Virus record (IMG/VR): IMGVR_UViG_3300025528_000019
Span: 1-35,591 of that record
Source: a virus
Lineage: Duplodnaviria; Caudoviricetes
DNA: 35,591 bases
Reading direction: 5' to 3' (one strand)
Made by a program: the position numbers and the translations under genes. How positions within the stretch are numbered: position 1 is the first letter of the stretch; every line of letters begins with the position of its first letter. Below, piece by piece: positions 1,247 through 34,274 of this stretch. The notes below the pieces were generated by a model. That model saw only the letters and a program-made list of their open reading frames with translations. It was not told where the DNA came from and searched no databases.

Positions 1247-1534
1247 ATGAACTACATGGACAGGACAGGCCGGGTGACGGACGGGGTGGACCAGGTGGAC
1301 CTGGGCCGGTTCGGGCCGGACCTACGGTTCCACGCCTACCGGGTGGATGTCCAGCTACGGGACGGACGGACCCTCCCGGCCTGGGTGGTGGAGGATACCC
1401 ACCAGCCGGACCCCCACTGGCCGGACATGGCCACAATCGTGGCTATAAGCCTGGACAACCTGGGGGACGCCAAGGCCCAGGCCATGCGGGTGGCCGGGCT
1501 TGGGGAAGCCCAGCTGGTGGAGGTGGCCGCATGA
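1247..1534 (+). CDS. Hypothetical protein
   Basis: AGGGGGA Shine-Dalgarno, first ORF after the promoter, ATGA overlap with the methyltransferase. Confidence 0.65.
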   Translation: MNYMDRTGRVTDGVDQVDLGRFGPDLRFHAYRVDVQLRDGRTLPAWVVEDTHQPDPHWPDMATIVAISLDNLGDAKAQAMRVAGLGEAQLVEVAA

Positions 1535-2340
1535 CCGCCGCCGCCATCAAACCGATCCTGAAGTATCCCGGCGCGAAGTGGGCGTTGGCGTCGTGGATTG
1601 TGAGCCACTTCCCGGCGCACAACCACTACGTCGAGCCCTACTTTGGCTCGGGCGCTGTGTTCTTCAATAAGAGCAAGGCGCCACACGAGGTGATCAACGA
1701 CCTCGACGGGCGCGTGATGCAGCTGTTTCGCGTGGTGCGTGACCGAGGCGAGGAACTGGCGCGAGCTGTGAGCCTGACGCCGTACGCGCGGGGCGAGTAT
1801 TACGAGAGCTACACCAGCACGGGCGATGACCTGGAGGACGCGCGGCGGTTCCTCGTGCGCTGCTGGATGGCGCACGGGTTTACGCCCGTCTGCCGCACGG
1901 GTTGGCGCCACAACGGCAGCAAGGGCCTCCAGCCCATCACGAACCTGTGGAACGACCTGCCGGCGCGCATCCTCGCCACGGTGGCTCGGCTAAAGGATGC
2001 CGAGATCGAGAGCGTGCCGGCGTTGGCAATCGTGGAACGCTACAACACCGCCGATACGCTGCTGTACGTAGACCCGCCCTATGTGCTCAGTACCCGCTCG
2101 CATAAGAGACTCTACCGCCACGAGATGACCGACGCCGACCATCTCGCGCTGCTGGACGCGCTCGACGCCCACCCCGGCCCGGTGGTGCTCTCCGGCTACC
2201 GCTGCGCGCTCTACGACGACCGCCTGCCGCACTGGCACACCGTCTCCATACGCGCCCAGGCGGAGCATGGCAACACACGCACCGAGGTGCTGTGGCTGAA
2301 CGACAAGGCCGCCAGCGCGCGGCAGTTGAGGCTCTTATGA
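1531..2340 (+). CDS. DNA adenine methyltransferase (Dam/D12 class)
   Basis: LKYPGAKW, YVEPYFGSGAV (SAM-binding), INDLD and catalytic DPPY. Start taken at ATG 1531. Confidence 0.9.
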   Translation: MTAAAIKPILKYPGAKWALASWIVSHFPAHNHYVEPYFGSGAVFFNKSKAPHEVINDLDGRVMQLFRVVRDRGEELARAVSLTPYARGEYYESYTSTGDDLEDARRFLVRCWMAHGFTPVCRTGWRHNGSKGLQPITNLWNDLPARILATVARLKDAEIESVPALAIVERYNTADTLLYVDPPYVLSTRSHKRLYRHEMTDADHLALLDALDAHPGPVVLSGYRCALYDDRLPHWHTVSIRAQAEHGNTRTEVLWLNDKAASARQLRLL

Positions 2341-2531
2341 CCGCCGCCACCACCGCGACCCCTGACACCGCCCGCCGCCTCGCCGCGGCCTGTCCGGGCT
2401 GGACACTGACCAGAAACGACGCCGGCTGGTGGCTCACGCCGCCCGACGGCGACGCGGCGCTGATTGAGACGGAGGCCGCCTTGCTGGCGTGGCAGGAGCG
2501 GTGGAAGGAGAGACACGATGCAGCAGCCTAG
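2337..2531 (+). CDS. Small hypothetical protein
   Basis: ATGA overlap with the MTase stop; carries the GGAAGGAG RBS of the next gene. Confidence 0.5.
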   Translation: MTAATTATPDTARRLAAACPGWTLTRNDAGWWLTPPDGDAALIETEAALLAWQERWKERHDAAA

Positions 2532-3288
2532 ACACATCGCATGGTTTTCCTGTGGCGCGGCCAGCGCCGTCGCCGCCAAGCTGGTGCTCGCGCAGCAGCC
2601 CGATGCGCTGGTTGTGCGCATCGTGATTGATAACGAGCATCCCGACAACGACCGTTTCACCGCCGACTGTGAGCGCTGGTACGGCCGCGAGATTGTGCGC
2701 TTGCGCTCCACCGAGTACCGCGACGTAGACGACGTGATCGAGCGGCGGCGGTTCCTCGTCAGTCCCTACGGCGCGCCGTGCAGCACCGAGCTGAAGAAGC
2801 GGGTGCGAGAGCAGTTCCAACGCCCGTTCGTGGACATCCAGTACTTCGGCTTTGACCTGACCGAGCAGGACCGTGCGCAGCGGTTCAGCGAGGCGAACCC
2901 CGAGGCCAACGCGCGCTACCCGCTGATTGAGGCAAGTCTGACCAAGGACGACTGCTTCGGCCTGCTGACGCGCGCCGGCATCGCGCTGCCCGCGATGTAC
3001 GAGCTGGGCTACCGCAACAACAACTGCATTGGCTGTGTGAAAGCGAACAGCCTGCACTACTGGCGGCGCATCCGGCGCGACTTCCCCGAGGTGTACGAGC
3101 GCCGGGCGCGCCAGGAGCGGATGGTGGGTGCGAGCATCAACCGCGACCGCGAGACGGGCGAGCGCTGGTGGCTTGATGAGTTGGGGCCGCGCCTCGACAC
3201 GCTGCCCCTGACATCGGACGAGCCAAACATCAGCTGCGGCATCCTGTGCGAGATTACCTATCAGGAGGTATCCGATGCCGCAGCCTGA
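2518..3288 (+). CDS. PAPS-reductase/PP-loop (adenine nucleotide alpha hydrolase) family phage protein with Cys motifs
   Basis: AWFSCGAASAVA PP-loop-like start, PCSTELKK, YPLIE, MYELGYRNNNCIGCVK, C-terminal SCGILC. Confidence 0.7.
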   Translation: MQQPRHIAWFSCGAASAVAAKLVLAQQPDALVVRIVIDNEHPDNDRFTADCERWYGREIVRLRSTEYRDVDDVIERRRFLVSPYGAPCSTELKKRVREQFQRPFVDIQYFGFDLTEQDRAQRFSEANPEANARYPLIEASLTKDDCFGLLTRAGIALPAMYELGYRNNNCIGCVKANSLHYWRRIRRDFPEVYERRARQERMVGASINRDRETGERWWLDELGPRLDTLPLTSDEPNISCGILCEITYQEVSDAAA

Positions 3289-3361
3289 GACCGACCCGCC
3301 CACCCAGCCTACGTCTACGGGAACCAGCGGCTGTCCTGGTGAAACGGAGGCTTAGCAGCAC

Positions 3362-4009
3362 ATGAGGCCAAGGCTACTCGATTTGTTCTGCGGTGCAGGC
3401 GGTGCGGGCATGGGCTACTACCGCGCTGGCTTTGACGTAACAGGTGTCGATATCGCAGCTCAACCGCGCTACCCGTTCGCTTTCGTGCAGGCAGACGCGC
3501 TCGAATATGCCGCCGCGCATGGGCATGAATACGACATGATACACGCAAGCCCGCCGTGCCAGCGGTACAGCAGCATCACAAAAGCCGCCGGTACAAGCGA
3601 CAACCACCCCGATTTGGTTGCGCCTACGCGCGAGTTGCTTAAGCGTCTTGGCAAGCCCTACGTTATCGAAAACGTACCGGGCGCTCCGCTTGACAACCCG
3701 CTGATGCTTTGCGGCACGATGTTCGGGTTGCTGGTGGTACGCCACCGGCTGTTTGAGACAAACCCAGCGCTATGGTGGCCTCCGCAACCCTGCCAGCACG
3801 AGCGCAAGGTGGTGAAGCATGGCCGGCGTCCTGACCGCCGCATACACTATGCGGCGGTTACGGGTCACTTTAGCGATGTTGAGTTTGCGCGAGAGGCGAT
3901 GGGCATCGACTGGATGACGACAACGGAATTGGCAGAGGCCATCCCGCCGGTATACACCGAGTTCATAGGCAAGCAGTTGAGGCAGTACGTATGTGTGAAG
4001 GCGACTTAG
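3362..4009 (+). CDS. Compact C5-cytosine DNA methyltransferase
   Basis: LLDLFCGAGG (motif I), ASPPCQ (catalytic PC), IENV (motif VI), RHRLF, C-terminal EAIPP. Confidence 0.85.
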   Translation: MRPRLLDLFCGAGGAGMGYYRAGFDVTGVDIAAQPRYPFAFVQADALEYAAAHGHEYDMIHASPPCQRYSSITKAAGTSDNHPDLVAPTRELLKRLGKPYVIENVPGAPLDNPLMLCGTMFGLLVVRHRLFETNPALWWPPQPCQHERKVVKHGRRPDRRIHYAAVTGHFSDVEFAREAMGIDWMTTTELAEAIPPVYTEFIGKQLRQYVCVKAT

Positions 4010-4519: not shown

Positions 4520-4733
4520 CCGGGCCCTCGAGGCCAAGGCGTTCATAGCCCGGGGCCAGCTGTCCCTGGCCTGGGCCACGGTGGCCCTGATGGACGATGT
4601 GGCCCGGCGCCGCCGGGCCACCACCAAGATTGAACAGCTGTGCAAGGACCAGGTGGCCTCGAGGCCCAGTCGTGGTGGCGGCCGCGTGCGGGTCCCTGAG
4701 GGGGGGGAGAAAGAATGGCGAACATCAACGTAA
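4506..4733 (+). CDS. Hypothetical protein
   Basis: ATG after GGGGAGG; overlaps the ATPase start; its 3' end crosses a compositional junction. Confidence 0.45.
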   Translation: MTDDDRALEAKAFIARGQLSLAWATVALMDDVARRRRATTKIEQLCKDQVASRPSRGGGRVRVPEGGEKEWRTST

Positions 4734-6253
4734 CGCGCCAGGGGCCGGAAGTCCAGTGGGACGACACCGACCGAGGCGACTACATCCGGCTCTCGCAGCG
4801 GGACATCGACCCCGCCCTGCGGAGCCGAGCGAACGGTGATGTCATCCGCTCCTGGGGGCTGGTGCTTGGGGCGTTTGCGCTCCTGCTGCTCCTGGTGCTG
4901 TACGGCCTCGCGGGATGGCAGTGTAGGCCCGAGGCGAACGTCTTCGAGACGAGCGTAGCCTGCTACGCCGCCCAGACCTTTTTCTGGCTGTACCTCGCGG
5001 GCCTGGTGGTGGCGCCCCTCGCTGGAGCCGCAACGATGCTGTGGAGCTACCGTCGCAGGACGCTGGCAGAGACCGAGCGGGCGCTCATCACGCGGGACGC
5101 CTGGAGTAACCCCGTCCACGCTGACGTGCTCCGCCAGATGGGTGCTGGGTGGGCTGTGTACCAGTTCAATCAGCGGCAGGCCCACGAGCAGGCGGTCGCC
5201 CCCTACAAGGTGCTCCCCGGCGGGTTAGAGAACCTCTCGCTGCATAACAGCGTTTCGGGTGGAAAGACCGTTGAGCAGCTTCCTGAGCCAGAGGACGCCC
5301 CGAGGGTGATGACTGCGCGTGAAGTGTACGACCGTCTGAATAACCTGCCCGACGACGACCCGCACTGTTTCGTCTACGGGTCGAGCGGCACGGGGAAGAC
5401 GACTTTCGTGCGCGGGCTGCTCGCTGACCGTGACGGCTTCCTCCTGGTCATCGACCCGAAGCCGGAAGGCGCGATGAAGTGGGGAGGCATCCCCTATGTG
5501 ACTATCGACGACGACGGTGACTACGGACCTATCCGGGATGCAATATCGGCGGTGCTGGCCGAGTTCCGCGAGCGTCAGGCTGTGGGCCGCATCAAGCCAC
5601 AGGAGTTCCCTACCATTACGGTGGTCGTGGATGAGTTCTTCCTCGCGCTTCAGAACGTCCCTGAGTTGGGCACGCTCGTGAAGCTGGTGTCCTCGGTCGG
5701 ACGGTCCCTGCGTGTTCGTCTCGTTCTGATGAGCCAGTCGAGCCGGGTGAAGTCCCTCGGTTTGGAGGGCCTCGGGGACCTGCTGGAGAACTTCACGAAG
5801 GTTTACCTCGGCAGGTACGCGACCGACAAGGTGCCCGACGCCGCCAAGTACGCCTCCAGCGCGAAGAAGGCCGGCGTTGTGATGGACGGCGAGGAGCCGG
5901 TCGTCATCGACACAAGGGATGTGCCCGACCTGGCCCAGCGCCCCCTGACGGTGGTACCTTGGACTCCCGAGGACCGGACCCTGGTGACGCTGGGTCCTGA
6001 GACGGAGGAGCTCCTGGAGCGATTGCTCGCCGGAACCGCTGGAACTGGTTCCGGTGTGATAAATACCAGCGCAGGACGCGACACCGAGGAACTGGTTCCG
6101 CTGGTTCCCGGTGGTTCCGACGAGGATCGGCTGGCCCAGGCACGAACGTTGGCCCGCCATACGGAGATGTCCGCGAATGAGATTGCACGCAAGGTCGGCG
6201 GGCGTAAAGAGGCGGTGCTGGCGGCGGTGCGAGAGGTTCGAGGGGTGAAGTAG
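4715..6253 (+). CDS. Membrane-anchored FtsK/HerA-superfamily (TraB/VirD4-like) P-loop ATPase with C-terminal HTH
   Basis: Two N-terminal hydrophobic helices; Walker A GSSGTGKT; VIDPK; Walker B VVVDE; GRSLRVRLVLMSQ motif; C-terminal MSANEIARKVGGRKEAVLAAVREV HTH. Confidence 0.8.
   Translation: MANINVTRQGPEVQWDDTDRGDYIRLSQRDIDPALRSRANGDVIRSWGLVLGAFALLLLLVLYGLAGWQCRPEANVFETSVACYAAQTFFWLYLAGLVVAPLAGAATMLWSYRRRTLAETERALITRDAWSNPVHADVLRQMGAGWAVYQFNQRQAHEQAVAPYKVLPGGLENLSLHNSVSGGKTVEQLPEPEDAPRVMTAREVYDRLNNLPDDDPHCFVYGSSGTGKTTFVRGLLADRDGFLLVIDPKPEGAMKWGGIPYVTIDDDGDYGPIRDAISAVLAEFRERQAVGRIKPQEFPTITVVVDEFFLALQNVPELGTLVKLVSSVGRSLRVRLVLMSQSSRVKSLGLEGLGDLLENFTKVYLGRYATDKVPDAAKYASSAKKAGVVMDGEEPVVIDTRDVPDLAQRPLTVVPWTPEDRTLVTLGPETEELLERLLAGTAGTGSGVINTSAGRDTEELVPLVPGGSDEDRLAQARTLARHTEMSANEIARKVGGRKEAVLAAVREVRGVK
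6032..6118 (+). repeat. GGAAC/TGGTTCC repeat cluster in the ATPase linker
   Basis: GGAACTGGTTCCG at 6041 and 6088; TGGTTCC at 6046, 6093, 6102, 6112; GGAACC at 6032. Confidence 0.7.
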
Positions 6254-6282
6254 TCAGCGGGGGCGGGTTCAACGCTCGCCCC

Positions 6283-6715
6283 TGCACCATTTGAGGAGGC
6301 AAAAGATGGAGTGGTGCAATCAGTGTGGCGAGGGGCTGCACGAGGGTGCAGCCTACTGCGTCTGGTGCGGTGCGGGGGTGCAGTCCGGTGCGGTGACAGG
6401 TGCAACGGTGCAACTTCACGGTGCGGGTGAAACCGAGCGGGTGATGCACCTCGGTGCAGGCAGCACCATCCCGCAGGTGGACACCTACGCTTGGGTCGCG
6501 GCCCGGCGCGGGCAGATGTTCGGGGTGCTGAACGCCCCTGCGGAGTTGCACCCGATGTGGCGAGGTGCAAACCAGGTGCAGGAGCAGGTGCATACGGTGA
6601 TGCACCCGGTGCATCACGGTGCAAGCCAGGTGCATCACCCGGTGATCGACTGGCTGCTGTGGGACAACCCCGTGGACAGGATGCGTGCGCGGGTGCAGAA
6701 CTCCTGGCTGGTGCA
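6283..6715 (+). repeat. GGTGCA repeat array
   Basis: 14 GGTGCA (6313, 6345, 6377, 6399, 6407, 6453, 6564, 6575, 6587, 6608, 6618, 6629, 6692, 6710), 4 reverse TGCACC and several GGTGCG, falling in all three codon frames. Confidence 0.9.
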
Positions 6716-6794
6716 GACCGAGGCAGGCACCATCGCGGTTGGCCTGTTCCTGCTGGTGCTGTTCCTGGTGTTCATCCCGATGCTGCTGGTGTAG
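6306..6794 (+). CDS. Zinc-ribbon protein with a C-terminal transmembrane anchor
   Basis: GAGGAGG RBS; CNQCG...AYCVWCG zinc ribbon; C-terminal IAVGLFLLVLFLVFIPMLLV. Confidence 0.7.
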   Translation: MEWCNQCGEGLHEGAAYCVWCGAGVQSGAVTGATVQLHGAGETERVMHLGAGSTIPQVDTYAWVAARRGQMFGVLNAPAELHPMWRGANQVQEQVHTVMHPVHHGASQVHHPVIDWLLWDNPVDRMRARVQNSWLVQTEAGTIAVGLFLLVLFLVFIPMLLV

Positions 6795-6860
6795 GGAACT
6801 GAAGAACGAATATGGCCGCATCCTACGGGCCCACGGCATACGTGATTAGGACGGCCTAAA

Positions 6861-6912
6861 CAGGCCCTGGCCAGGGTCTGGTCAGGGTCAGCCCAGGGGG
6901 TGGTCAGGGTCT
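6861..6912 (+). repeat. 11-bp-period CAGG(GTC) array
   Basis: CAGG at 6861, 6872, 6883, 6894, 6905; three copies are CAGGGTC. Confidence 0.65.
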
Positions 6913-6933
6913 GAGTAGGCCCAGGCCACCCCC

Positions 6934-6962
6934 TAGACGTGGTCCATAAACTATGTTAGAAT
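6934..6962 (+). promoter_or_regulatory. Sigma70-like promoter with a GTCCATAAA box
   Basis: TAGACG-17 nt-TAGAAT; the spacer GTCCATAAACTATG nearly matches the spacer at 8181. Confidence 0.55.
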
Positions 6963-7013
6963 AGGTCCACCGGCCCAGGGGAGGGGCCGGCCTAGTAATG
7001 GGGGATACATTTG

Positions 7014-7661
7014 ATGACCCTACAGACGATGAACAAGGCCGGCGGGCTCGAGCCCTGGGGCTGGGTCCAGGCCGTGGACCGGGCCCTTGGCAATGGCCGC
7101 CTGGTGTGGACCTGGGTTCAGGTCCCCCTACAGGGCGCCCTGAAATACGGCCCGTCCGTCCTGCTGGCCCTGCCGGCGGCCTACGCGTCGGCCCAGTTCA
7201 GCACCCACCACGACATGTTCCCCCAGGGCCTGGGCTGGGCCATTGGGGTGGGGTTCGAATGGCTCTACCTGGGGACCCTGGCCATGTCCGGGTCCCTGAG
7301 GGACAGCCGCTACTTCCGGCTGGTGAACCTGCTGGCCGTCCTGACCAGTATCACCTATGTGACCCTGTGGGGCCTGGTCAAGTATGGGGTGCTGGGGGAC
7401 CTGGACCCCAGCTGGGGCTGGTCGTTCTATGCGGTGGCCACCCTGCTGGCCGTGGTCCATGCGGCGCCGCTGGCCGGCCTGAACTTCCTCTATAACTCGC
7501 TCATCCACCAGCATGACCGAGAACAGGCCCAGGACCAGCAGGCCCAGGCCGCCCAGCAGGCCCACAGCTGCCCTGACTGTGGCTGGGCCCCACCGCTGGG
7601 CCACCGGGACCCAGCAGCGGCCCTGAACGGCCATAAGCGGCATTGCAAGGGGGGTGTCTGA
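7014..7661 (+). CDS. Multi-pass membrane protein with a C-terminal C2H2-like zinc finger (Spd/DUF2637-like architecture)
   Basis: About four hydrophobic segments, AIGVGFEWLYL, a Q/A linker, then CPDCG...ALNGHKRHC. Confidence 0.7.
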   Translation: MTLQTMNKAGGLEPWGWVQAVDRALGNGRLVWTWVQVPLQGALKYGPSVLLALPAAYASAQFSTHHDMFPQGLGWAIGVGFEWLYLGTLAMSGSLRDSRYFRLVNLLAVLTSITYVTLWGLVKYGVLGDLDPSWGWSFYAVATLLAVVHAAPLAGLNFLYNSLIHQHDREQAQDQQAQAAQQAHSCPDCGWAPPLGHRDPAAALNGHKRHCKGGV

Positions 7662-7689: not shown

Positions 7690-7830
7690 ATGCTGGCCAT
7701 GAACGTGAAAGAACTGTCCGAGACAACAGAACGGGTGGGCCTGGAAGTTGCACAAGCCATTAATGCGGTGGCTGATGCCCTAAGCCGCATAGCGGCGGCC
7801 CTCGAAAGACAGGGGGCGCCCAATGCTTAG
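7690..7830 (+). CDS. Small helical peptide (46 aa)
   Basis: MLAMNVKELSETTERVGLEVAQAINAVADALSRIAAALERQGAPNA; AGGA RBS; overlaps the next start. Confidence 0.45.
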   Translation: MLAMNVKELSETTERVGLEVAQAINAVADALSRIAAALERQGAPNA

Positions 7831-8176
7831 GGTGGCCATTGTGGGGTCCCGGGACTACCCAGACCGGCTGGATGTGGAACAGCTGGTCCACCAGCTGGTG
7901 GAAGCCCACGGGCCGGGGGTGGTCATCATCAGCGGTGGGGCTCGAGGCCCAGACAGCTGGGCCGTGGAAGTGGCCAAGGACCTGGGCCTGGACACGGTGG
8001 TCCACCGGCCCGATTGGTCCCAGGGGAAGGGGGCTTGGTTCGACCGGGACGTGGCCATAGTCCGGGACGCTGACCTGGTCTATGCGTTCTGGGACGGGGT
8101 CAGCGATGGGACCCGGAACACCATTCACCTGGCCCGCTGGGCCGGATGCCTGGCCTACGTGTTCACCCCGGCTTGA
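7823..8176 (+). CDS. SLOG-family (YspA/DUF2493-like) nucleotide-binding protein
   Basis: VAIVGSRDY, IISGGARGPD, PDW...GKGA...R, AFWDGVSDGT. Confidence 0.8.
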   Translation: MLRVAIVGSRDYPDRLDVEQLVHQLVEAHGPGVVIISGGARGPDSWAVEVAKDLGLDTVVHRPDWSQGKGAWFDRDVAIVRDADLVYAFWDGVSDGTRNTIHLARWAGCLAYVFTPA

Positions 8177-8201
8177 CCCCGTCCACAAACTATGGTACAA
8201 T
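8173..8201 (+). promoter_or_regulatory. Sigma70-like promoter with a GTCCACAAA box and no downstream ORF
   Basis: TTGACC-17 nt-TACAAT with an extended -10 TG. Confidence 0.65.
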
Positions 8202-8349
8202 CGTTCTAGACGGACTGGGATGGCCGTCCCGGCCCGTTCCGCCCCCACCAGCTGGTCCCTGGTGGGGGCATTCCTATTTAACATTCTCCCACATAATGTT
8301 CAATTGGCCCGGCCATAAACCGTCCATCAAGGCCTCAGTGTAAAGCGAT

Positions 8350-11276: not shown

Positions 11277-11319
11277 AGTATACACCCATTGTGGACGGAT
11301 GTCAACACCCAATGTGGAC
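11277..11319 (-). promoter_or_regulatory. Leftward sigma70 promoter of a divergent pair
   Basis: Minus strand TTGACA-TCCGTCCACAATGGGTG-TATACT, upstream GTCCACATT, 5' hairpin GTGTCA-GGACG-TGACAC. Confidence 0.8.
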
Positions 11320-11362
11320 TACGTGTGGGCCTGGTACCCGCCCCCTATAGTCCCCCTTGCAC

Positions 11363-11428
11363 GTCCACAAACCCTGTTGACAACAGTCCGCAATGGGTGT
11401 ATACTGTCTCTGCCGTGAGAGACACGGC
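11363..11428 (+). promoter_or_regulatory. Rightward sigma70 promoter of a divergent pair
   Basis: GTCCACAAA, TTGACA(11377)-ACAGTCCGCAATGGGTG-TATACT(11400-11405), then a GCCGTG-AGAGA-CACGGC hairpin. Confidence 0.8.
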
Positions 11429-13478: not shown

Positions 13479-13827
13479 TTACACTCCCGGCCAAAATCAT
13501 GACGGGCACGTTTATGGCAGTAGGATGCCACAAACCCCGTAATTCATGACGGGCATGTCGGGGGCATGTCGGGGGAATGACGCCCCCTGTCACGGCTGTT
13601 TATGGCTTTGATATGCCGTATAAAACGCTTTACATGACGGGCATGACGGGCAGTTCCACAAACTTTCCCCATGTATGTTTTTCCATACCCTCATAAGGGC
13701 TACTTTATGGAAACCCCGTCATGCCCGTCATGTAAAGAATATATAAGGCATACTAAAGGCTTAACCCCCCGTGACAGGGGACTGTCATGGCCCCGACATG
13801 CCCGACATTTTTTTAGGGGTTTAGGGC
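13479..13827 (+). repeat. Origin-like iteron element, copy A (inverted relative to 29851-30200)
   Basis: CATGACGGG at 13498, 13545, 13633, 13642; reverse copies at 13715, 13724; CATGTCGGG variants. Perfect 23-bp inverted repeat 13628-13650/13715-13737. AT-rich core. Confidence 0.9.
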
Positions 13828-27195: not shown

Positions 27196-28833
27196 TCATC
27201 CAATCGCCCACGGCCCGGTGGGGGCCACCAGGTCCAGCCGGCCCTGGTCCTTCAGCTGCATGACCACGGTCCCCACCGCGTCCAGCGTGTCATCATTGCG
27301 GCCATGCGGCCAGGCTTCCCACTCGGTGGCCAGCTGGGCGGCCACATCTTCCACCACGAACAGCTGGCCCCGGTCCGTGTACTCTGCCAGGGCCTCTATC
27401 TTCTCCGCCTTGGGCCGGCTCGAGTAGAACTTGGTCGGGACCGTGTGGACCCCGGCGGCCCCCAGCCGCTCGTTCAGCAGGTCGGCCTGGATGCCCCCAG
27501 CCGCGTTTTCCTCGACCCAAAACCCGTCCAGGTAGACCCCGGCGGCCCGGTGGACCTTCAGCCGCTTGACGATGGCTGCGATGGTGTCCTTGTAGCTGCG
27601 GCGCTGGCTGTCCACGTAGTCCACGAACAGGCGCCGCGTCCGGGGGTGGAACAGGACTTCCACATAGGCGGCCAGGTCATTCCTGGCCCCACCCTTCTCG
27701 GTCGGGTCCAGGGCGGCCAGGCGCTCGAGCTCGCCCGGGGGTGGCAGGTCAGCCCGGCGGATGTAGGCTGGCCGGCCCAGGGCCCCGCCGGCCTCGTCCG
27801 GGGCGTTCTGAATTTCCGATTGGAACGCAGCCTTGCCGGCGGCCAGCCGGTAGACCATCAGGTAGTAGTAGGCGTCCGGACGGTCCCACAGGACCTGGGT
27901 CCCCTCGAGCATCTCGGCCTTGTGCGCCTGGTAGAATTCGTCCGCTTCAGCGTCCGTGGGCTGGGCCCCGTCCCGGGCCCGCTCCAGGAACCAGGCCTCC
28001 CACTCGGCCCACAGGTCCTGACGGTCGGCAAACCGCTTGACCCCGGCCTCCACCAGGCGGTCAAAGTCCGGCCTGGCCAGCAGATGGCCCATGATGCTGG
28101 TCCGGCGGATGACCGTCCCCACGAACACAAAGCTGCTGGTGAACCGGACGTTGTCCCCCAGCTGCAGGACCGACTTGTTCAGCCACTCAACGGCCGCGTC
28201 CAGCTGGACCTGGGACCGGACGAGCTGGTCATCGTCCAGGTCATCCCCAATAATCAGCCGGGGCCGGACGGGATTAGACACACCACGGATGGCCCCATTC
28301 CCCACCCCAAAGGCCACAATGGTCCGGCCAGCGTAATCAATGCGGTCACTGCCCCAGCTGGCGCCGCCGGCTATCTCGGGGAAATCCTCACACCAAGCCG
28401 GGCTGGCCAGGGCCGTTTCCTTGATGTTCTTGTTCAGGCGCTCGGCTGCGGTCTGGGTGTTGCCCAGCAGGACCGTCAGGGGGGACCAGCCGTAGGACAG
28501 GCCGTGCAAGGGCATGATGCGGCTATAGAAGGTGGACTTGGCGTGGCCTCGAGGGATGGCCCGGGCCAGCTTGACCCCCCGCTGGCCGCTGACCGCCCGG
28601 GTCCGGATGTCGTCTATGTCAGCCAGGAACCGGCGGTGGACCGGGGCAAAGTCCAGGACGAACTCATCCGGGAAGTACAGCTTGACAAATGCCCCAGCGT
28701 CCTGCTGGCCCAGCCAGCGGCGCAGGCCCCGGGGGCCGGTCAGCGGGGCATCCAGGCTGGCCAGGTAGGCCAGCTGGTCCCGGGACCAGTGGCGGCCCAG
28801 GTAGTGGGTCAGGGTGGACAGGCCGCCGGTCAT
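27196..28833 (-). CDS. terL: Terminase large subunit
   Basis: Walker A PRGHAKST, Walker B IIGDD, FVGT coupling motif, nuclease AALDP and NDDTLDA. Confidence 0.92.
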   Translation of the reverse strand: MTGGLSTLTHYLGRHWSRDQLAYLASLDAPLTGPRGLRRWLGQQDAGAFVKLYFPDEFVLDFAPVHRRFLADIDDIRTRAVSGQRGVKLARAIPRGHAKSTFYSRIMPLHGLSYGWSPLTVLLGNTQTAAERLNKNIKETALASPAWCEDFPEIAGGASWGSDRIDYAGRTIVAFGVGNGAIRGVSNPVRPRLIIGDDLDDDQLVRSQVQLDAAVEWLNKSVLQLGDNVRFTSSFVFVGTVIRRTSIMGHLLARPDFDRLVEAGVKRFADRQDLWAEWEAWFLERARDGAQPTDAEADEFYQAHKAEMLEGTQVLWDRPDAYYYLMVYRLAAGKAAFQSEIQNAPDEAGGALGRPAYIRRADLPPPGELERLAALDPTEKGGARNDLAAYVEVLFHPRTRRLFVDYVDSQRRSYKDTIAAIVKRLKVHRAAGVYLDGFWVEENAAGGIQADLLNERLGAAGVHTVPTKFYSSRPKAEKIEALAEYTDRGQLFVVEDVAAQLATEWEAWPHGRNDDTLDAVGTVVMQLKDQGRLDLVAPTGPWAIG

Positions 28834-29850: not shown

Positions 29851-30200
29851 GCCCTAAACCCCTAAAAAAATGTCGGGGATGTCGGGGGCATGACAGCCCC
29901 CTGTCATGGGGGTTTAAGCCTTTAGTATGCCTTATATATTCTTTACATGACGGGCATGACGGGGTTTCCATAAAGTAGCCTCATGGAGGGTATGAAAAAA
30001 CATACATGGAGAAAGTTTGTGGAACTGCCCGTCATGCCCGTCATGTAAACACTTTCGCAGCCGATTAGGACGCCCAGAATGGACGATGACAGGGGGCATG
30101 ACAGGGCCCGTCATGCCCCGACATGCCCGGCACGAATTACGGGGTTTGTGGCATCCTACTGCCCTAAACGTGCCCGTCATGATTTTTGGAAAGTGTGTAA
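29851..30200 (-). repeat. Origin-like iteron element, copy B (reverse complement of 13479-13827)
   Basis: 29914-29980 is an exact 67-bp reverse complement of 13698-13764; same iteron layout with one diverged internal segment. Confidence 0.9.
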
Positions 30201-31436: not shown

Positions 31437-34274
31437 ATGCAACTAACCCACAGCGGGCCAACCCGGCCCGTCCTGAACAACTACCACCAGACTGGCCGCT
31501 GGCTGGCCAGCCTGGGCGCCACGGTGACCTGTATTGGGGCCGGCGACAAGCGGCCCATCCACAAGTGGAAGCACTACTACGAGGGCCACCCCCAGGACGT
31601 GGACCAGCTCCCCTGGCGTGGGTACACCAGCCAGGATGGCCGGCTGGTCCAGTGTGGTGGTGTGGGGATTTGCAGCGGCCTGGGTGGCTGGCGGGCCTTT
31701 GACCTGGATAGCTGTGACACCACTGACCCGGTCCTGGCTATCCTCGAGGCCCTGGGCCTGGACGCCAACTACCCGTGGGTGGTCCGGTCCGGGTCGGGCC
31801 GGGGGTGGACCATCTGGATCCTCTGTGATGAGGACCTGCCGGCGGGGGCCCTGCCACTGCCGCCCGGGAAGGATGACAAGGCTACCTACTGGGGGTCCCC
31901 CAGGGTGGCCGGGGACTTTGACCACCTTGAGCTCCGGTGGTCCGGCTGTCAGACGCTGGTCCCGCCATCCACCCATCCCACCGGACCAGGCTACCGCTGG
32001 TGGCTGGGGGACCGGCCCTCGAACCCACCGGCCCGGGTGAAGGCCCACCAGGTCCTGGCCGCGTTCTTCGCAGTGGCCGCCCCGGTCCTGCCGAAGGTCC
32101 AGGGCCGTCCCCAGCGTGAGAGACGCACTAGCTCCGAAGGACAGGTCCAGGCCCAGACCCGGCTCGAGCGGTCCAGCGCGGTGGACGCCATCCGGGACCG
32201 GCTGGACATCCTCGAGCTGGCCCAGGACCAGTGGTCAGGCCAGGTGGTCCGGGAGCGGGACGGCCAGTATAGGGTCCTGGGGCACGGCGGGGTCCTGGTG
32301 GACGTGGACAAGGGGGTGTGGTATCAGTTCAGCGGGGAACTGGGTGGGGATGTGCTGGACCTGCTGGGCCTCATCATGTTCGGGTCCTGGGACCCGGCCA
32401 CGGACCGCACGGACCGGGTCAAGTGGCCGGCGGTTCTGCACAGGGCCAGCCAGCTGACCGGGGTTCCGCTCGAGGAAAGCCGAACCCCCCGGGGCGCCTT
32501 CCCAGGGGGTTCGTCGGGGGACGGTCCGAACCGGGGGGCCGGGGTGGGGAAGGACCCGTCCGGTTCACCTGATGCGTACAATACCACGCCCGGACAAAAT
32601 CTGTCAAGCGGCGGTGTGGACAATTCCGGTGGCCCGGTGGTGGATAAGTCTCTGGAACCGGACCAGGCCCTGGCCTACATCAGCCGCGCTGAAGTGGGTG
32701 ACGCCGAGGCCATCCATCACCTGGTGGGGGACAGTGTGGCCTGGGACCCGGTGGTGGGGGCCTGGTATATCTGGGACGGCCACCGCTGGGAGCGGGATAC
32801 GGCAGGGACCATCCCCCAAATTGTCTACCTGAAGCTGGTCCCGGCCTACGCGGACGTGGTCCGGCGCCTGGCCGATGAATACGCCCAGCTGGTGGCCCAG
32901 GGGAGGGGCGTAGACCGGGACCGGCTAAAGGCGGTACAGGACGCCCAAAAGGCCATCCAGGACCGCATAGGCCGGCTGCTGACAGCAAAGCGAATTGACA
33001 ATACGCTGAAGCTCCTGAAGGCCATGACCGGGGTCCCCGCTGGCCGGTGGGACGCCCACCCCTACCTGCTGGCGGTGGCCAATGGGGTGGTAGACCTACG
33101 GACCGGGGCCCTGCTTCCGCCGGACCCCACCCTGTACCTGCGGACCACCAGCCCGGTCCGCTGGGACGGCCTGGACGCCCAGGCCCCCCGGTGGGAGCGT
33201 TTCCTGGATGAAATCTTCCAGGATAAGGACCCCACGGACCGGGCTGCTATCATCGGCTACCTTCAGCGCCTCCTGGGCTACAGCCTGACAGGGGACACGT
33301 CGGACCACCACTTCTCCGTCTGGTGGGGGGCCGCCGGCCGCAATGGCAAGGGGACCATCTTGACAGTCATGGGCTGGGTCCTGGGCCCCCTGGCTGGCAA
33401 GGTGGAAAAGGATGTGCTGGTGCGGCGCCACAACGCAGCCAGCGGCGCCGCCAGCCCCCACCTGTTTGACCTGAAGGGTAAGCGGTTTGCGTTTGTGGAT
33501 GAGCTGTCGGACGGGGAGAAGTTGAACGTGGGCCAGGTCCAGGAGCTGACTGGTGGGGGTGTCCTGAAGGCCCGCCCCCTGTATGGCCAGCCGGACGAAT
33601 GGACCATGACCCACCACCTGGTCCTGTCCACGAACCATCGGCCCCACGTCGCGGCAGAGGAAGAGGCATTCTGGCAGCGGGCCAGCCTGGTCCAATTCGG
33701 GATGCGCTTCTTAAAGAACCCCGACCCGAATGACCCCTGTCAGCGGCCGCAGGACCCCAACCTGCTGGATGCCCTACGGGCCGAGCTGCCAGGTATCCTG
33801 GCCTGGCTGGTCCGGGGCTGCCTGCTGTGGCAGCAAGAGGGGCGCCGCATCCGGGTCCCCGAGTGTATCCAGGCCTACACGGCCAGCTACCGTGAGGATG
33901 AGGACACCCTCGGGAACTTCCTGGCCGATGAATGTGTCCTTGACCGGCGGTTTGCGGTCAAGGCCAAGGAGCTGTACCAGGCCTATGTGGACTGGGCCGG
34001 GACCCAGGGCATCAGGCGGCCCCTGGCAGCATCCGAGTTTGGGATGCAGATGAAAATGCGGCCAGGGATTGACTACCACCGGACGGGGTCCGGCAGGGTG
34101 TATGTGGGGTTGGCGCTCCGGGGCAACACCCCCGGGACGGTCCGGGGTGAGGATGCCCCGGTGGCCGCCCCGGCGGCCGCCCCGGCGGCCACCAACGGGT
34201 CCACGGACGCCAAGGGCCTGGTGGAACGTCTCAAATCCCGAAAGGTTAGCCACGCCGACCTGCTCGAGCTGTAG
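31437..34274 (+). CDS. Bifunctional primase-polymerase fused to a P4/D5-family SF3 helicase
   Basis: N-terminal Prim-Pol (DKRP..KW, GVGICSG, FDLD, RSGSGRG, LVPPSTHPTG.GYRW); D5_N (WYIWDGHRW, VANGVVDLRTG); Walker A GAAGRNGKGT, Walker B FVDE, TGGGVLKARPLY, STNHRP; C-terminal winged helix. Confidence 0.92.
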   Translation: MQLTHSGPTRPVLNNYHQTGRWLASLGATVTCIGAGDKRPIHKWKHYYEGHPQDVDQLPWRGYTSQDGRLVQCGGVGICSGLGGWRAFDLDSCDTTDPVLAILEALGLDANYPWVVRSGSGRGWTIWILCDEDLPAGALPLPPGKDDKATYWGSPRVAGDFDHLELRWSGCQTLVPPSTHPTGPGYRWWLGDRPSNPPARVKAHQVLAAFFAVAAPVLPKVQGRPQRERRTSSEGQVQAQTRLERSSAVDAIRDRLDILELAQDQWSGQVVRERDGQYRVLGHGGVLVDVDKGVWYQFSGELGGDVLDLLGLIMFGSWDPATDRTDRVKWPAVLHRASQLTGVPLEESRTPRGAFPGGSSGDGPNRGAGVGKDPSGSPDAYNTTPGQNLSSGGVDNSGGPVVDKSLEPDQALAYISRAEVGDAEAIHHLVGDSVAWDPVVGAWYIWDGHRWERDTAGTIPQIVYLKLVPAYADVVRRLADEYAQLVAQGRGVDRDRLKAVQDAQKAIQDRIGRLLTAKRIDNTLKLLKAMTGVPAGRWDAHPYLLAVANGVVDLRTGALLPPDPTLYLRTTSPVRWDGLDAQAPRWERFLDEIFQDKDPTDRAAIIGYLQRLLGYSLTGDTSDHHFSVWWGAAGRNGKGTILTVMGWVLGPLAGKVEKDVLVRRHNAASGAASPHLFDLKGKRFAFVDELSDGEKLNVGQVQELTGGGVLKARPLYGQPDEWTMTHHLVLSTNHRPHVAAEEEAFWQRASLVQFGMRFLKNPDPNDPCQRPQDPNLLDALRAELPGILAWLVRGCLLWQQEGRRIRVPECIQAYTASYREDEDTLGNFLADECVLDRRFAVKAKELYQAYVDWAGTQGIRRPLAASEFGMQMKMRPGIDYHRTGSGRVYVGLALRGNTPGTVRGEDAPVAAPAAAPAATNGSTDAKGLVERLKSRKVSHADLLEL

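Follow-up and report, generated by a model that had tools for sequence, protein, structure and literature searches.

The 35,591-nucleotide DNA analysed here (the window) is the whole of IMG/VR virus record IMGVR_UViG_3300025528_000019 (Duplodnaviria; Caudoviricetes), which is linear and 54% complete by CheckV. It encodes an ATPase, ORF A, which we propose with moderate confidence, by analogy with the TraB proteins of Streptomyces plasmids, to be a pump for double-stranded DNA (dsDNA) that would spread the element carrying it along the filaments of its host. Central to the proposal is an array of short motifs that lies within the ORF A gene itself and abuts the segment coding for the C-terminal tail, the candidate reader of that array. 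The window contains terminase, portal, capsid, tape measure, tail and endolysin genes and thus represents a tailed phage; the terminase of its own claimed in the original prediction, which was made from the sequence alone, lies at 27196-28833, and portal, capsid and tail genes were likewise found. The same prediction saw no visible integrase, which is not a finding because the record is linear and 54% complete. Those relatives of the ATPase whose source has a name are from Kouleothrix aurantiaca and Roseiflexaceae assemblies, and hence the phage host is probably a filamentous Chloroflexales bacterium. The ATPase gene has the following features.

4715..6253, plus strand: ORF A, 512 residues, a membrane-anchored ATPase assigned to the FtsK/TcpA branch, with a C-terminal three-helix (helix-turn-helix- or HTH-like) tail
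4856..5011, plus strand: two predicted membrane helices of ORF A, residues 48-66 and 81-99
5306..5944, plus strand: RecA-like motor of ORF A, residues about 198-410, with Walker A at 5378-5401 and Walker B at 5621-5635
6032..6118, no strand assigned: array 1, three GGAAC and four GTTCC in the ORF A coding linker, ending at the start of the tail; candidate site for ORF A's own tail
6119..6241, plus strand: three-helix tail of ORF A, type S-x-N-x-I...GG-x-R/K, modelled without wing strands

The motor motifs of ORF A are intact: Walker A (GSSGTGKT, residues 222-229), Walker B (VVVDE, 303-307) and a GR pair (329-330) that we take to be the arginine finger of FtsK/HerA enzymes. Relatives numbered 1191 at E<=0.001 among 1.84 billion representatives, and in the 101 aligned rows taken from the best 150, G227 and K228 were present in all 101, D306 in 94 and R330 in 96. 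Pfam gave only sub-threshold matches (FtsK_SpoIIIE, E 0.006). The structure model (mean pLDDT 81) had the FtsK motor 6t8g as its best Foldseek match (E 2.1e-8), and VIA gave Z scores of 16.4 for TcpA (root-mean-square deviation 5.2 over 209 aligned residues), 15.7 for EccC, 14.5 for FtsK, 12.9 for HerA and 12.7 for TrwB. Judged by its model, ORF A belongs to the FtsK-TcpA-EccC branch of the FtsK/HerA superfamily, and the hydrophobic helices, motor motifs and structural matches together bear out the membrane-anchored FtsK/HerA-type ATPase first proposed. Grouping with non-translocating ATPases, which would speak against a pump, was not what we found: besides its place in this branch, the family profile matched pIJ101 Tra over motor and tail (E 8.5e-15) when run against a 10-protein set. 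The pIJ101 coding sequence was presumed to be Tra from its position beside spdA/spdB.

Two further observations concern the motor. The family matches PHROG 2666, labelled terminase large subunit (E 1.9e-6 for ORF A); we rejected this identity for ORF A as the phage terminase is encoded elsewhere in the window and the ORF A fold is FtsK-like, and the label looks misleading here. The same motor domain also occurs within proteins of 1277-2833 residues (P0041, P0057, P0062, P0107, P0111 and P0148).

The tail domain (residues 469-509) is modelled as three helices with no strands, the protein stopping three residues past helix 3. A fold search with it was uninformative (best Z 5.0, to unrelated proteins, with HTH domains at 4.1-4.4) and a PDB profile search returned designed helical repeats, so the name HTH reflects the helix pattern alone; of the predicted C-terminal HTH, it is the three-helix C-terminal domain that stands in the model. 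Array 1, which ends where this domain begins, holds two GGAAC-TG-GTTCC near-palindromes (6041-6052 and 6088-6099), and GGAACTGGTTCC occurs in it twice. Its seven motifs compare with 0.5-1.0 expected from the protein sequence and codon usage, a count reached in 0/5000 draws. Because the counts exceed this expectation, array 1, like array 2 described below, is a DNA-level feature; protein low complexity as the origin of the two arrays was ruled out by their frames, their strands and the codon-usage null.

An array inside the gene is a trait of the family. From DNA patterns and genome searches we obtained 72 distinct homologous reading frames. Of these, 57 had a complete end, a Walker A motif and a locus no shorter than 3.5 kb and so entered the test; the window and some of its close relatives are among the 57. 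At p<=1e-6 an array was present in the last 390 nucleotides of 25/57 genes versus 0/57 equal stretches of motor (Wilcoxon p 3e-9); in the flanks of the 57, arrays at this threshold were found in 7 (600 nucleotides downstream) and in 3 (upstream). Both strands were used in 26 of the 31 arrays at p<=1e-5 and more than one frame in 29 of them.

The motif also follows the tail. With ATPase similarity held, motif similarity tracked tail similarity (partial rho 0.15; 5/2000 permutations), whereas the correlation of motif with ATPase similarity, tail similarity held, gave a rho of 0.02 (665/2000 permutations). This comparison used the 29 of 55 loci that had a strong 5-mer; the window fell below the threshold because GGAAC is common in it. 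Tail typing by pattern assigned one tail type to each of 52 of 150 representatives, and the linker dipeptides forced by the matching motif followed tail type (n=52), with p values of 2e-6 for type I, that of the window, 7e-7 for type V, 0.011 for type II and 9e-4 for type III. The FastTree tree of the motor shows 21 changes of tail type, and the tail type of the window differs from that of its nearest relative (66% in the motor). The linker and tail swap as one cassette between ATPase lineages. The co-variation of array and HTH among homologues, put forward as a check on the original idea, was thus found: the motif follows tail type and not ATPase lineage.

The gene neighbourhood was surveyed at 54 loci that span 6 kb or more, not counting the window, with genes called by our own script over about 10 kb on each side. 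A co-oriented adjoining gene with two or more membrane helices was present in 48/54 loci versus 14/184 background genes, so that the membrane partners expected of a transfer module are indeed conserved. The family of ORF C, the multi-membrane protein encoded downstream in the window, occurred within three genes of the ATPase in 12/54 loci. An integrase was encoded in 33/54, and the recurrent neighbours were tyrosine and serine recombinases, primases, ParA, ParB, a ParM-like protein and Replic_Relax, a gene for the last lying near the ATPase in 6 Chloroflexales loci. In gene content these neighbourhoods have a make-up like that of actinomycete integrative and conjugative elements (AICEs). A scan of 54 proteins from the recurrent neighbour clusters, which covers about 10 kb either way, showed no type IV secretion system (T4SS) family. 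Five loci (L098-L101 and L104) are elements joining a primase, a ParM-like gene, the ATPase, membrane genes and Replic_Relax, and in L098-L101 a GTGTCA array, possibly an origin, lies about 4.4-4.7 kb upstream.

The distribution of the family points to filamentous hosts. Profile matches were found in 47/167 Chloroflexales genomes; none was found at 1e-25 in 251 genomes of the Symbiobacteriaceae phylum or in 151 genomes of the Streptomyces order, with 7-13 candidates scored per genome in each. Plasmid matches obtained with cyanobacterial queries came from filamentous cyanobacteria in 14/14 and 12/12 records, all typed non-mobilizable, whereas a control replication protein of the same plasmid gave at least 38/82 records from unicellular genera; these records are not independent, and cell form was assigned from general knowledge. 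The plasmids include pDU1 (two records) and pCC7120zeta, and some are only 5-6 kb. A tail array at p<1e-6 was present in 3/6 cyanobacterial genes, and the pDU1 gene had a weaker one.

Viral contigs also carry the family, one of them (L021) with tape-measure and tail genes, and the family profile matched Mischief19 gp79 (E 3.8e-17) and PaV-LD ORF127L (E 7.8e-14). Neither the L021 ATPase nor its membrane neighbour had a match in INPHARED. PHROG 733, labelled excisionase, matches the membrane part of that neighbour, and this label too looks misleading.

The comparison with known systems draws on parts of four papers (PMC4447253, PMC4170104, PMC3429521, PMC8597652). In these parts TraB is described as binding direct 8-bp clt repeats and pumping dsDNA (PMC4447253), SpdB2 homologues on the actinophages phiC31 and VWB are suggested to help spread phage DNA (PMC4447253), and the single-protein strategy of dsDNA transfer is called unique to Actinomycetales (PMC3429521). 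Like the TraB/Tra, clt and Spd systems of Streptomyces plasmids (pIJ101, pSVH1, pJV1, pSG5) and like AICEs, the present module has a single membrane-anchored FtsK-type ATPase with a putative C-terminal DNA-binding domain, plasmid carriers typed as relaxase-free, membrane-protein neighbours, filamentous hosts, and carriage with integrase and replication genes. ORF C resembles SpdB2/DUF2637-like proteins in having about four membrane helices and a putative DNA-binding part at the C terminus, which is a zinc finger and not an HTH. Unlike the direct 8-bp repeats of clt, the motifs here are 5-7 bases long, intragenic and in both orientations, and the hosts are Chloroflexales and cyanobacteria, not actinomycetes; none of the three TraB genes tested had an array in its last 400 nucleotides. 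TcpA (the pCW3 coupling protein), EccC/EssC and chromosomal FtsK share the motor fold (Z 14.5-16.4), and they differ in that the plasmids with the family lack a relaxase, ORF A has one motor and not three, and its model lacks an alpha or winged gamma domain. Phage-borne spread or FtsK-like genes are also on record (the phage SpdB2 genes, Mischief19 gp79, PaV-LD ORF127L and Chloroflexus vOTU vO23), where the parts of the accounts drawn on here are annotations or a one-line proposal with neither a cis array nor a reader-address cassette. By anatomy and distribution, then, the module resembles TraB/clt, and it falls outside that system on the wing, the repeat geometry and the host. We regard the family as a real and widely distributed version of single-ATPase transfer in which the gene for the proposed pump would itself contain the address. 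We found no account of the family or of its intragenic arrays in a literature search that covered mainly open-access papers.

The mechanism that we envisage runs as follows. The ORF A motor would form a ring, and the tail would bind array 1 of its own gene. If the tail reads its own array, every pump would be directed to the very DNA from which it is expressed, and a cassette swap would change reader and address together. With sites in both orientations, the array would identify the molecule to be loaded without setting a direction. ORF C-like proteins would help at the septum, as Spd proteins do; the pump would move the element's DNA into the next cell of the host filament, and the phage would use it as a second, virion-free route of spread.

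Several observations weigh against this proposal. No array was present at p<=1e-6 in 32/57 loci, and the PaV-LD and ABRG53g genes have no tail array. The partial rho is small and the window itself is under the threshold of that correlation; the dipeptide test is partly circular because the motif sets came from overlapping data and were chosen after seeing them; and linkage alone gives some co-variation because array and tail adjoin. The fold does not fix the substrate, as a coupling protein of a T4SS and an ATPase of protein secretion are among its best matches. The family profile barely matched pJV1 TraB (E 8.5e-4) and missed pSG5 TraB (0.13), and the ORF C profile had no match among 10 Spd-region proteins of three plasmids (best E 0.23). 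The C-terminal domain of TraB is a winged helix, whereas the ORF A tail is modelled as three helices without a wing. In 251 Chloroflexota genomes all 11 matches were from Chloroflexales; other Chloroflexota classes also include filamentous members, and so the link to filaments may be partly one of ancestry.

The ATPase also behaves as an exchangeable accessory gene, as close relatives replace it or hold unrelated sequence in its place. A contig from runs X3 and X4, which belong to two same-year studies and perhaps to a single campaign, keeps the membrane part of ORF A, departs at 5253 and rejoins at 6260, with motor, linker and tail replaced; in X4 and X12 unrelated sequence lies after 4658 and before 6258.

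Finally, intragenic two-way sites resemble SpdA2/sps more than clt. In the part of PMC4170104 drawn on here, SpdA2 of pIJ101 binds a palindrome (sps) inside its own gene and affects segregational stability, not transfer. SpdA2 is thus likewise a DNA-binding protein with a site in its own coding region; it differs in being small and motorless, with sps conserved across plasmids, whereas in the present family the putative reader is part of an ATPase and motifs vary by element. This likeness of the two-way, near-palindromic coding-region sites favours a different account, which we consider unlikely: ORF A would be a membrane tether or segregation aid, its tail binding its own array and the ATPase holding or clearing element DNA at the membrane or closing septum for inheritance, with none entering a finished neighbour cell. 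FtsK itself is described in part of PMC3429521 as clearing DNA from septa, and ParA, ParB and ParM-like genes are frequent neighbours of the family. Many loci, however, already have ParA/ParB or ParM-like systems or an integrase and so have less need of an extra stability device, and a segregation aid should serve unicellular hosts too, yet 0/14 plasmid matches were unicellular.

We think it distinctly improbable that the array does no more than regulate its own gene, as an operator that acts as an internal roadblock, with the ATPase moving non-element cargo such as proteins or blocking incoming phage DNA. The Z scores of the protein-secretion ATPases EccC/EssC differ by no more than about 1 from those of TcpA and FtsK, the ORF A model has no FtsK alpha domain but just a disordered stretch joining membrane part and motor, and some motor relatives sit in proteins of 1000-2800 residues; nonetheless, the persistent swapping of reader together with array across lineages fits the addressing of cargo, plasmids of 5-6 kb carry the family with little else to export, and the closest characterised relative by profile is a DNA-transfer protein. 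Least probable is that plasmids and integrative elements use the family as a pump whereas in this phage it is a recently acquired, unused passenger, as might be read from a GGNCC density in ORF A and the adjoining ORF B (9.7 and 2.0 per kb) that deviates from the phage backbone (12-49 in virion genes, with ORF C agreeing at 40), from the different motor or unrelated sequence of relatives at this slot, and from the failure of all six window virion proteins tested to match the fetched loci by BLAST (0/6), because the motifs are intact, the exchange seen in relatives from two runs spares the membrane part and is confined to motor and tail (joint 5253 to 6260), and relatives occur in other viral contigs such as L021 and in the phages PaV-LD and Mischief19.

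Downstream of ORF A the window has the following features.

6283..6715, no strand assigned: array 2, 18 GGTGCA/TGCACC, 17 within ORF B; length varies among close relatives
6306..6794, plus strand: ORF B, 162 residues, with an N-terminal CxxC/CxxC zinc ribbon, a repeat-coded middle and a C-terminal membrane helix
6867..6913, plus strand: array 3, 4.3 degenerate direct copies of an 11-mer with a CAGGGT core, 69% match, intergenic
6933..6967, plus strand: promoter-like stretch preceding ORF C, with 74% similarity to another at 8172-8206, with sigma-70-like boxes by eye
7014..7661, plus strand: ORF C, 215 residues, a multi-membrane protein with a C-terminal CxxC...H..H zinc finger

Array 2 holds 18 of the window's 20 GGTGCA/TGCACC, and its copies in ORF B span three frames and both strands (17 versus 6.3 expected from protein sequence and codon usage; 0/5000 draws). 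Array 3 is the only 52-nucleotide stretch of the window with three CAGGGT. It is weak, since CAGGG/CCCTG occurs 248 times in the window and the array fell short of p<1e-8 in the array scan; lying just ahead of the promoter-like stretch, it could be an operator. Close relatives retain ORF B while array 2 gains and loses units, and arrays 2 and 3 stay when the ATPase is swapped or missing, so they are not tied to this ATPase allele. We therefore rejected the idea that the three arrays together make up a single loading site. GGTGCA was also rejected as the motif of the pump, with at most two copies in 1/55 homologous tails. Neither array 2 nor array 3 is likely to serve the pump as its site. Of the three arrays originally described, then, the first two are strong and, as had not been noted, coding, and the third is weak; of the pump with its loading site, only array 1, intragenic and two-way, is tied to the ATPase.

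The zinc-ribbon membrane protein and the multi-membrane protein with a C2H2-like finger that had been predicted here are recognisable in ORFs B and C. ORF B has a weak DZR match (E 0.002, below cut-off), a C-terminal hydrophobic segment and three database matches only; no relative of it was found in the fetched loci except the window's own copies. ORF C has about four hydrophobic segments by eye, of which a hydropathy script counted two, and 39 database matches. C2H2 was matched in 16/32 aligned members of its family and DUF2637 weakly in 2/32 (E 0.013). A search of the viral contigs with the ORF C alignment gave no related loci, as did one with ORF A alone, and a complex prediction of ORF A (residues 30-445) with ORF C scored 0.08. 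ORF C relatives beside the ATPase often carry coding arrays of their own before a C-terminal HTH or zinc finger (L110:8458-9348, L008:10579-11217, L115:8339-8905, L070:750-1424), with GAACA x16, AGCGA x15 and ATGCCCA x7, and ATGCC x13 downstream of the L070 ATPase. The self-addressed layout may thus extend to partner proteins.

Other parts of the window also drew attention. The phage backbone is unusually rich in GGNCC and CCWGG. The stretch 1531-4009, with adenine methylase, PAPS-reductase-like and cytosine methylase genes, has 0-2.6 GGNCC per kb, unlike the backbone, and is a second foreign-looking cassette, perhaps for DNA modification. Two intergenic inverted copies (13479-13827 and 29851-30200; arms of 199 nucleotides at 94% and 85 nucleotides at 89%), rich in CATGAC/GTCATG palindromes, bracket the whole 16-kb virion gene block. 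They could represent a replication origin present twice, or else mark the two boundaries of a segment that can invert. Between divergent genes at 11277-11405 lies a 43-nucleotide inverted repeat (81%) with a 43-nucleotide spacer, a possible operator or origin. A 945-residue protein (31437-34274) is kin to the Prim-Pol/DUF3987 replication proteins of L127 and L109, and a SLOG/YspA-family gene (7823-8176) directly follows ORF C.

The proposed pump can be extended, tentatively and with more doubt than belief, to the view that a self-addressed dsDNA pump made by one gene, with reader and address together in a swappable 3' cassette, is common to tailed phages, plasmids and integrative elements in filamentous Chloroflexales and cyanobacteria and moves whole phage genomes through septa. 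If so, infection would run along the filament without virions, bypassing receptor-level defence. The question is directly testable because the family sits on pDU1 and pCC7120zeta, plasmids of laboratory Nostoc/Anabaena strains, and the tail types paired with motifs are a natural series for the study of protein-DNA recognition. A TraB-related system in Chloroflexales and filamentous cyanobacteria would explain the movement of small plasmids typed 'non-mobilizable' and would show that DNA passes between the cells of a filament; a phage that carried it would have another way to infect.

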